DNA of 64,000 nt from Escherichia coli (GTDB lineage Bacteria > Pseudomonadota > Gammaproteobacteria > Enterobacterales > Enterobacteriaceae). The translations under genes were made by a program, and so were the position numbers. Shown here piece by piece: positions 15,121 through 15,378 of the stretch. The notes under the pieces are model-generated. The model made no database searches and had not been told where the DNA came from. It worked only from the letters and a program-made list of their open reading frames with translations. Each line of letters begins with the position of its first letter. Positions within the stretch are counted from its first letter, which is position 1. The stretch lies in NCBI RefSeq assembly GCF_044324785.1, contig NZ_CP172127.1; one strand, written 5' to 3'.

Positions 15121-15378
15121 TCAATTTGGCAGGCAGCGTCTGCCAAATCTTTGCCGATGGAAATTCTGCAGACGGTGTCTGCAGAACTTCAACGTGTTGA
15201 TAAAAAGGTAAAAAAGCCTAATTTGGCGTAAGTTTTTTGCAGAGAACCCACGCTTATATCTTAGACTTAAATCCTTTGATAGTCGCTTGATTAGCTGCGC
15301 ACCATACGCAGCCCTAGCCTCGCCACCTTGTTCAAATTCGACAATCCGTCGGCCAATTTCCCAGTACGTCGCGGTCAT
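15121..15378 (-). pseudogene. yhcG: yhcG remnant: N-terminal DUF1016 fragment of a PD-(D/E)XK-type nuclease-family gene, truncated
   Basis: 85-aa ORF; first ~58 aa (TYWEIGRRIVEFEQGGEARAAYGAQLIKRLSKDLSLRYKRGFSAKNLRQIRLFY) have the conserved DUF1016 N-terminal signature, then a non-conserved tail and TGA; locus about 840 bp versus about 1.1 kb expected for intact yhcG. Confidence 0.6.

Follow-up and report, generated by a model that had tools for sequence, protein, structure and literature searches.

The closest described systems to the palindromic element of DUF1016 genes are the ParB-parS and KorB-operator pairs and the intragenic operators. Compared with ParB/Spo0J-parS and KorB-operator, DUF1016 proteins are missing the ParB N-terminal CTPase domain, the putative reader and a NucS-like PD-(D/E)XK nuclease are fused in one protein, the site sits at a fixed codon phase in the reader domain's own coding sequence, adjoining the reader helix, and each gene has a hypervariable specificity of its own. 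As with lac O2 in lacZ and gal OI in galE, a dyad-symmetric site, putative in DUF1016, lies within coding sequence, and a few DUF1016 loci have a promoter-proximal twin 340-430 bp away. Unlike those operators, the DUF1016 intragenic site is universal and the promoter-proximal copy rare, and the site is in the putative regulator's own gene. The C proteins of R-M systems are small HTH dimers that, together with palindromic boxes, tune nuclease expression, and their specificity groups have diverged so that cross-talk is avoided. There the boxes are found upstream of the C gene and are read by a separate protein, and DUF1016 is likened to these systems by description only. REP/RAYT, integron attC sites and IS200/IS605 ends are also short palindromes tied to a nuclease or recombinase gene, but they are folded single strands, dispersed or terminal, whereas the DUF1016 site is at a single locus, in frame, and coupled base by base to an alpha-helix. 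A stable GC-containing stem with a short loop is shared with intrinsic terminators and coding-region RNA hairpins; unlike intrinsic terminators, the DUF1016 element is without a U-tract, a mapped 3' end, a wobble signature or an Rfam match. Neither Rfam nor the searchable literature yielded a description of a DUF1016 palindrome. What is new is that, throughout the family, the candidate site is embedded in the codons of its reader, and that the recognition code is readable.

The window, a 64-kb stretch of Escherichia coli DNA, carries nanE, nanK and nanQ, then a minus-strand 101-aa ORF, a remnant of yhcG (DUF1016) and a fimbrial-like ORF. An uncharacterised gene of E. coli K-12, yhcG belongs to a family, DUF1016, that is widespread in defence islands and type I R-M operons (PDC-S02). 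The window was aligned with E. coli FORC_042, which has the same architecture, and with K-12, which has an intact yhcG. The palindromic units of K-12 are called P1 to P4 below, and the locus comprises the following features.

14188-14652, plus strand: nanQ (yhcH), the convergent neighbour and locus anchor.
14653-15123, minus strand: unrelated DNA of ~470 bp substituted for the 3' two-thirds of yhcG and K-12 P4; its edge adjoins P1.
15124-15460, minus strand: yhcG (DUF1016) remnant, approximately K-12 codons 11-137, without the start-codon region and the whole YhcG_C nuclease domain.
15124-15148, minus strand: palindrome P1, with arms 15124-15134 and 15138-15148 and spacer 15135-15137.
15160-15190, minus strand: P2/P3 hybrid, with core arms 15163-15173 and 15177-15187 and spacer GGT at 15174-15176.
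15183-15184: junction, unit to unit, of a 39-nt deletion relative to K-12 and FORC_042.
15205-15207 (near 15206), minus strand: 1-nt deletion in a homopolymer, K-12 GAAAAAAGAGG versus GATAAAA-AGG in the window.
15208-15249, minus strand: putative recognition-helix codons GFSAKNLRQIRLFY, K-12 residues 81-94, which include the residues that co-vary with the half-site.

To judge from its sequence, the window yhcG is a dead gene: its first ~10 codons are gone, it has a frameshift and the 39-nt deletion, and its nuclease half has been swapped out. Its palindromes are therefore relics. DUF1016_N sequence is present in the window as a frameshifted fragment only (a megablast piece at 15162-15435 is ~92% identical), and the deletion near 15206 places the frameshift immediately 5' of the palindromes on the coding strand (85-aa ORF). 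The YhcG_C PD-(D/E)XK nuclease domain is absent from this copy, with 14653-15123 in its place; the junction is in the outer portion of the P1 arm, and the replacement is common to ~720 of 5,426 complete E. coli genomes. The remnant is also without its upstream intergenic region (15436-15490), and the next minus-strand ORF (15488-16153) has its stop codon only ~30 nt beyond the end of yhcG homology.

The 101-aa ORF (14728-15033, minus strand), labelled 'transposase' by NCBI, lies in a module at ~14705-15115. It has no match in Pfam, NCBIfam, PHROGs or PADLOC. Its 37 homologues are from Enterobacterales only, as far as the sources are named, with a 100% match in Shigella flexneri, and in Yersinia and Enterobacter the ~430-bp module adjoins integrase or prophage genes, so that it looks like a small mobile cargo gene. 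We rejected a tie between the palindrome and this module, since the Yersinia and Enterobacter modules lie elsewhere and without such palindromes. Between the convergent nanQ and the 101-aa ORF, a perfect 11-bp inverted repeat with a 20-nt loop (TGGCACAGAGC / GCTCTGTGCCA, 14686-14727), one arm of which is part of the mobile module, may be a terminator.

An earlier note on this DNA had drawn attention to two adjacent hairpins in the remnant, and the inverted repeats are real, present where the note had placed them and above chance in Markov resamples and shuffles. The first is a perfect 9-bp inverted repeat (I3), 15124-15132 ATTTGGCAG and 15140-15148 CTGCCAAAT; one G.T and one C-G pair more make it 11 pairs long, with a 3-nt loop. 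This is P1, which in intact yhcG encodes IWQTLSAK and which in the window has one changed arm base, G15133, giving the G.T pair on the plus strand. The two TCTGCAGA octamers (15165-15172 and 15178-15185) are the inner parts of a single inverted repeat (I1, 15160-15173 and 15177-15190) with 14-nt arms, 93% complementary and 3 nt apart. This hybrid, at 15160-15190, is the product of a 39-nt (13-codon) deletion that joined the neighbouring units P3 and P2, the exact site being ambiguous within 15177-15186 because GTCTG...GAA is shared. Perfect hairpins with a stem of 9 or more and a loop of 3-7 number 11 in the 64-kb window, compared with an expectation of 1.7 by first-order Markov resampling. 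A 63-nt segment at this locus contains two of them, and the remainder are mostly terminators of the classical A-tract/T-tract type. The sequence CAGACNNNGTCTG occurs once, with 0.04 occurrences expected. Folding of 15100-15200 gave -33.4 kcal/mol (z -3.1) on the plus strand and -39.0 (z -5.4) on the minus strand, more stable on both strands than all 200 shuffles.

The intact K-12 gene shows what these repeats were. K-12 YhcG matches PF17761 (DUF1016_N) at 7.5e-38 over residues 19-184 and YhcG_C (PF06250) over residues 208-360, and the palindromic repeats form an insertion within Pfam DUF1016_N. The protein reads ...FQHV-EIHQTMSGEL-TPL-GIPQTPSAEF-PSA-KIWQTLSAKS-FPLP..., that is, three tandem 13-codon units with a palindrome in each, and a fourth copy, P4, lies 19 nt past the yhcG stop codon.

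K-12 P3, in frame: ATTCACCAGAC aat GTCTGGCGAAT.
K-12 P2, in frame: ATTCCGCAGAC acc GTCTGCAGAAT.
K-12 P1, in frame: ATTTGGCAGAC gct GTCTGCCAAAT, forming the 25-bp duplex ATTTGGCAGACGCTGTCTGCCAAAT.

The earlier note had assigned the repeats to a non-conserved tail, but they align to approximately codons 113-137 of intact K-12 yhcG, where the same bases are the in-frame codons of GIPQTPSAEF and KIWQTLSAKS. Its description of the region as a yhcG remnant with a discrete element unlike ordinary coding sequence is borne out; its inference of a junk or non-coding nature is not, and most DUF1016 genes, across many phyla, have a palindrome in this codon phase. The REP-like family that the note had suggested looking for did not appear either: the motif search gave one copy in the 64 kb and one locus per E. 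coli genome. The K-12 site is found in yhcG only, at one locus per genome (a palindrome read on both strands scores as two places in the copy counts, which are one locus), and it is therefore not a dispersed repeat; REP-like dispersal is ruled out on this ground.

Conservation of the element was followed in DUF1016 genes from plasmids, from 80 species genomes (many bacterial phyla and two archaea) and from 80 viral contigs, each gene being anchored by a protein HMM independently of the palindrome. Approximately 85% of 140 diverse homologues from bacteria, archaea and viral contigs have 11-bp arms and a 3-nt spacer in one codon phase. The consensus is ATT-yyy-CAGAC-RNY-GTCTG-y'y'y'-AAT (11-bp arm, 3-nt centre, 11-bp arm), and the element occupies a fixed codon phase in the loop after the N-terminal-domain helix GFSxxNLxxMRxFY. 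Once protein misalignment is allowed for, one or more units are present in 78 of 89 loci; 103 of 108 units have their centre nucleotide in codon phase 0, and tandem units recur at a spacing of ~39 nt. Among the 61 unique homologues of the viral set, 50 have the palindrome, at identities as low as 24%; an example is ATTGTGCAACA act TGTTGCACAAA, which encodes IVQQLVAQI.

Across phyla, the nucleotide sequence of the element is more conserved than the protein would require. Of 80 distinct sequences, 69% have 9 or more of the 11 pairs at the position set by the HMM, as against 0.021% of 23,422 in-phase background positions in the same genes. The mean number of pairs is 8.78, compared with 5.15 under synonymous resampling, and P is at most 0.01 in 52 of the 80 sequences. 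Codon choice within the element is strongly biased: Thr is ACA in 80% versus 21% elsewhere, Ser is TCT in 78% versus 13%, and Gln is CAG in 42 of 46 cases. Spacer base 1 falls on a synonymous third codon position, and all 54 of 54 cases have a purine there (p=2e-15). Symmetry and distorted codon choice beyond the need of the protein therefore indicate selection on the DNA. The arms of the element also covary: in an unbiased alignment of 80 sequences (A3), with arms of 11-12 bp, 86.1% of cells are paired versus 65.0% after shuffling (none of 500 shuffles was as high), 194 cells are double changes where 66.5 are expected, and all 12 pairs show double changes. Control registers slid by one to three columns reach at most 41% paired, and RNAalifold recovered the same helix.

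Copies also occur outside the reading frame. They are lineage-specific and without flank homology, 14-80 nt upstream of the start codon at L006 (357-375), L037 (2867-2893), L069 (~1129-1153) and L126 (~1422-1446), and at or after the stop codon in K-12 (P4, L002) and L171 (~2460-2484). Bases 3-7 of the extragenic copies are those of the intragenic copy, K-12 P4 excepted; differences fall elsewhere and are often compensated. Three Collinsella loci have another long palindrome, with 15-17-bp arms, ~790 nt upstream of the DUF1016 palindrome (L081 and L088, 1935-1971; L089, 2500-2532), whose relative position is constant between the strains and whose sequence is not.

The variable bases of the half-site follow particular residues of the protein. 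Mutual information was calculated between 306 protein columns and each half-site base in 129 distinct homologues, with the palindrome-encoded residues excluded. In K-12 numbering, the top partner is residue 88 for bases 3 and 4, residue 85 for base 5, residues 85 and 89 for base 6, and residue 89 for base 7; for bases 9-10 the partners are residues 142 and 144 of the LSWSHY motif and 170 and 171 of the WSVRxLxRQI motif. In one helix, residues 85, 88 and 89 share a face (i, i+3, i+4), and residues 84, 86, 87, 90 and 92-100 are distinctly more weakly coupled to the half-site. The associations at these positions are as follows.

Arg85, G at base 5: 55 of 55 genes; 75 of 77 units, versus 5 of 93 in non-Arg genes.
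Ala85, C at base 5: 13 of 15.
Thr85, T at base 5: 15 of 18.
Glu88, C at base 4: 9 of 9.
Arg or Lys88, G at base 4: 38 of 51.
Ala88, T at base 4: 10 of 11.
Trp, Tyr or Phe88, T at base 4: 18 of 23.
Gln89, CA at bases 6-7: 25 of 25.

Half-site bases thus co-vary with helix residues 85, 88 and 89, and in a chemically canonical way. When closest relatives with Arg or non-Arg at residue 85 were contrasted in 55 disjoint pairs, base 5 switched between G and non-G in 52 of them, as against 2 of 64 control pairs in the same state; the contrast is a rough phylogenetic control, some pairs being up to 89% identical outside the patch. The code trained on genomes and applied to the viral set was right in 47 of 56 cases for residue 85 (baseline 31 of 56) and in 46 of 54 for residue 170 and base 9; for residue 88 it transferred poorly. 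A first full-length AF2 model reached a pLDDT of 65 only, and the N-domain was re-modelled with 120 sequences. This model of the N-domain suggests a resemblance to the ParB/KorB DNA-binding domains; a PDB sequence search gave no match.

The same linkage of helix and site is seen among E. coli alleles. The yhcG genes of K-12 (L002) and of ES8 and TUM2330 (L091 and L092) are 92-100% identical except at nt 211-420, where identity is 40-82%, and this divergent patch spans the reader helix and the palindromes. Across it, a reader with R88 and the site TGG is exchanged for a reader with W and the site CTC, the latter in TUM2330. The mosaic patch, as read from the alignment, suggests a cassette-like exchange of specificity within E. 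coli.

On this evidence the element is probably the cognate double-stranded DNA site of the protein's own ParB/KorB-like HTH domain, with a symmetric dimer as the reader. Such a dimer would read both arms of the duplex, and reader and site, which are encoded within ~80 bp, would co-evolve and change jointly as one specificity cassette. Arm covariation is what would be expected from a symmetric dimer with a co-evolving reader, and hairpin formation is therefore not required to account for it. The putative binding might serve autoregulation, or the cis-loading of a potentially toxic NucS-like nuclease, or alternatively the site might also be cut; we would put none of these at quite an even chance. 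In the window, P1 marks the breakpoint of the nuclease-half replacement, and the second repeat is the product of a deletion that joined two units. It is conceivable, on a more speculative footing, that DUF1016 and apparently RhuM constitute an unrecognised class in which a long, private palindromic address is written in the codons beside the reader helix, so that the two pass on and are exchanged jointly as an ~80-bp cassette.

If this proposal is true, the code (residue 85 to base 5, 88 to bases 3-4, 89 to bases 6-7) would make specificity predictable and re-programmable, and the self-site would be central to the control of a defence-island nuclease or to self/non-self discrimination. The more than 100 natural reader-site pairs are a data set for protein-DNA recognition. 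The palindrome also offers a candidate reason for the frequent splitting and truncation of DUF1016 genes at one point: YhcG matches the PADLOC phage-defence candidate PDC-S02, and many PDC-S02 sub-models end at residues ~101-115 or begin at ~122-129 (covering ~10-110 or ~122-370), which indicates that DUF1016 genes are often split at the palindrome.

An unlikely alternative, in our judgment, is that the element works in a folded state, as an mRNA hairpin or a DNA hairpin or cruciform, acting on translation, decay or termination, or recognised by shape like attC, REP or IS200 ends. The predicted folds are stable, the arms covary, relatives of the nuclease domain act on branched or distorted DNA, and a short-form subset has a T-run past the stem on the antisense strand. 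However, the variable stem bases follow specific amino acids of a helix, which a purely structural role does not predict, and the spacer is limited to R-N-Y without covariation between its bases 1 and 3 (A-T 45, A-C 26, G-T 16, G-C 11), a constraint without pairing. Nor is there a G.U signature: sense-strand mismatches comprise 13 G.T, 29 A.C and 56 others, the A.C excess arising because third codon positions are G-rich, so that wobble does not decide between strands or between RNA and DNA. A consensus terminator and promoter scan of 14600-15550 flagged neither repeat and found no terminator-like tail, and an Rfam covariance-model scan of six loci, at E up to 1, returned nothing relevant. For MG1655, supplementary file 2 of PMC7815308 lists Rho-termination regions in yhcG (3367827-3368954) at nt 80 in the sense and nt 755 in the antisense direction, and no K-12 3'-end or Rho event lies at nt 304-413, where the palindromes are; MG1655 yhcG is probably poorly expressed in laboratory conditions. 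A Rho-independent terminator was rejected, given that no U-tract was flagged and that no K-12 3' end falls at the palindromes, and a programmed frameshift was rejected since upstream slippery-like runs, judged by eye, occur in some clades only and are not general. The stable folds proposed by the earlier note thus stand, whereas secondary structure is probably not the operative feature: a symmetric protein dimer on double-stranded DNA explains the arms best.

Similarly improbable is that the site is chiefly the putative cleavage target of the nuclease itself, in a homing- or restriction-like manner, with breaks driving gene conversion and rearrangement. A PD-(D/E)XK nuclease fused to a reader of a long site is compatible with such a role, as are the position of the site within the divergent mosaic patch and the boundaries of the PDC-S02 sub-models around the palindrome. 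Several independent E. coli rearrangements also terminate at or next to the palindromes: the replacement junction and the 39-nt unit fusion of the window, a deletion in HH97 that joined unit 1 to the P4 side, and a deletion in O157 that begins 10 nt after unit 1 and takes out units 2 and 3. Tandem repeats and palindromes, however, rearrange readily without a nuclease, and perfect sites are kept in intact genes, which disfavours frequent self-cleavage.

It is far less probable that the palindrome is functionless, a quasi-palindrome self-perpetuated by template-switch mutation in a tolerant loop of the protein. In E. coli, quasi-palindromes are known to be perfected by template switching, the peptide encoded here forms a loop or linker, and the E. 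coli alleles include single-arm polymorphisms as well as compensated doubles. The single codon phase kept by ~85% of bacterial, archaeal and viral-contig homologues speaks against such a process, the coupling to residues 85, 88 and 89 and the recurrent extragenic copies at gene ends are left unexplained by it, and the purine at spacer base 1 without covariation to base 3 is unlike templated copying. We give practically no credence to the earlier note's reading of the region as non-coding junk in a non-conserved tail, or to the REP-like repeat that it proposed to look for. The local gene is truncated and frameshifted, but intact yhcG has these bases as conserved coding sequence, each genome has them at a single locus, and the element is conserved family-wide.

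Type I R-M operons are enriched in a second accessory family besides DUF1016, that of RhuM (PMC9881135). Among RhuM-family genes (L175-L254; L079, 4193-4223; L090, 5478-5504; L075, 4272-4298), all 32 of 32 distinct sequences contain a 25-bp palindrome, in frame and at constant phase, whose arms covary. It lies 46 or 55 nt before the YNLD motif and encodes, for example, VVRKFRTT or VVANFATT. By its sequence the RhuM palindrome may be of the same design as that of DUF1016, and it hints that the design is a wider one. In the RhuM STIS[E/R/K]H helix, Glu tends to accompany C, and Arg or Lys to accompany G, in the half-site, an association that is suggestive.
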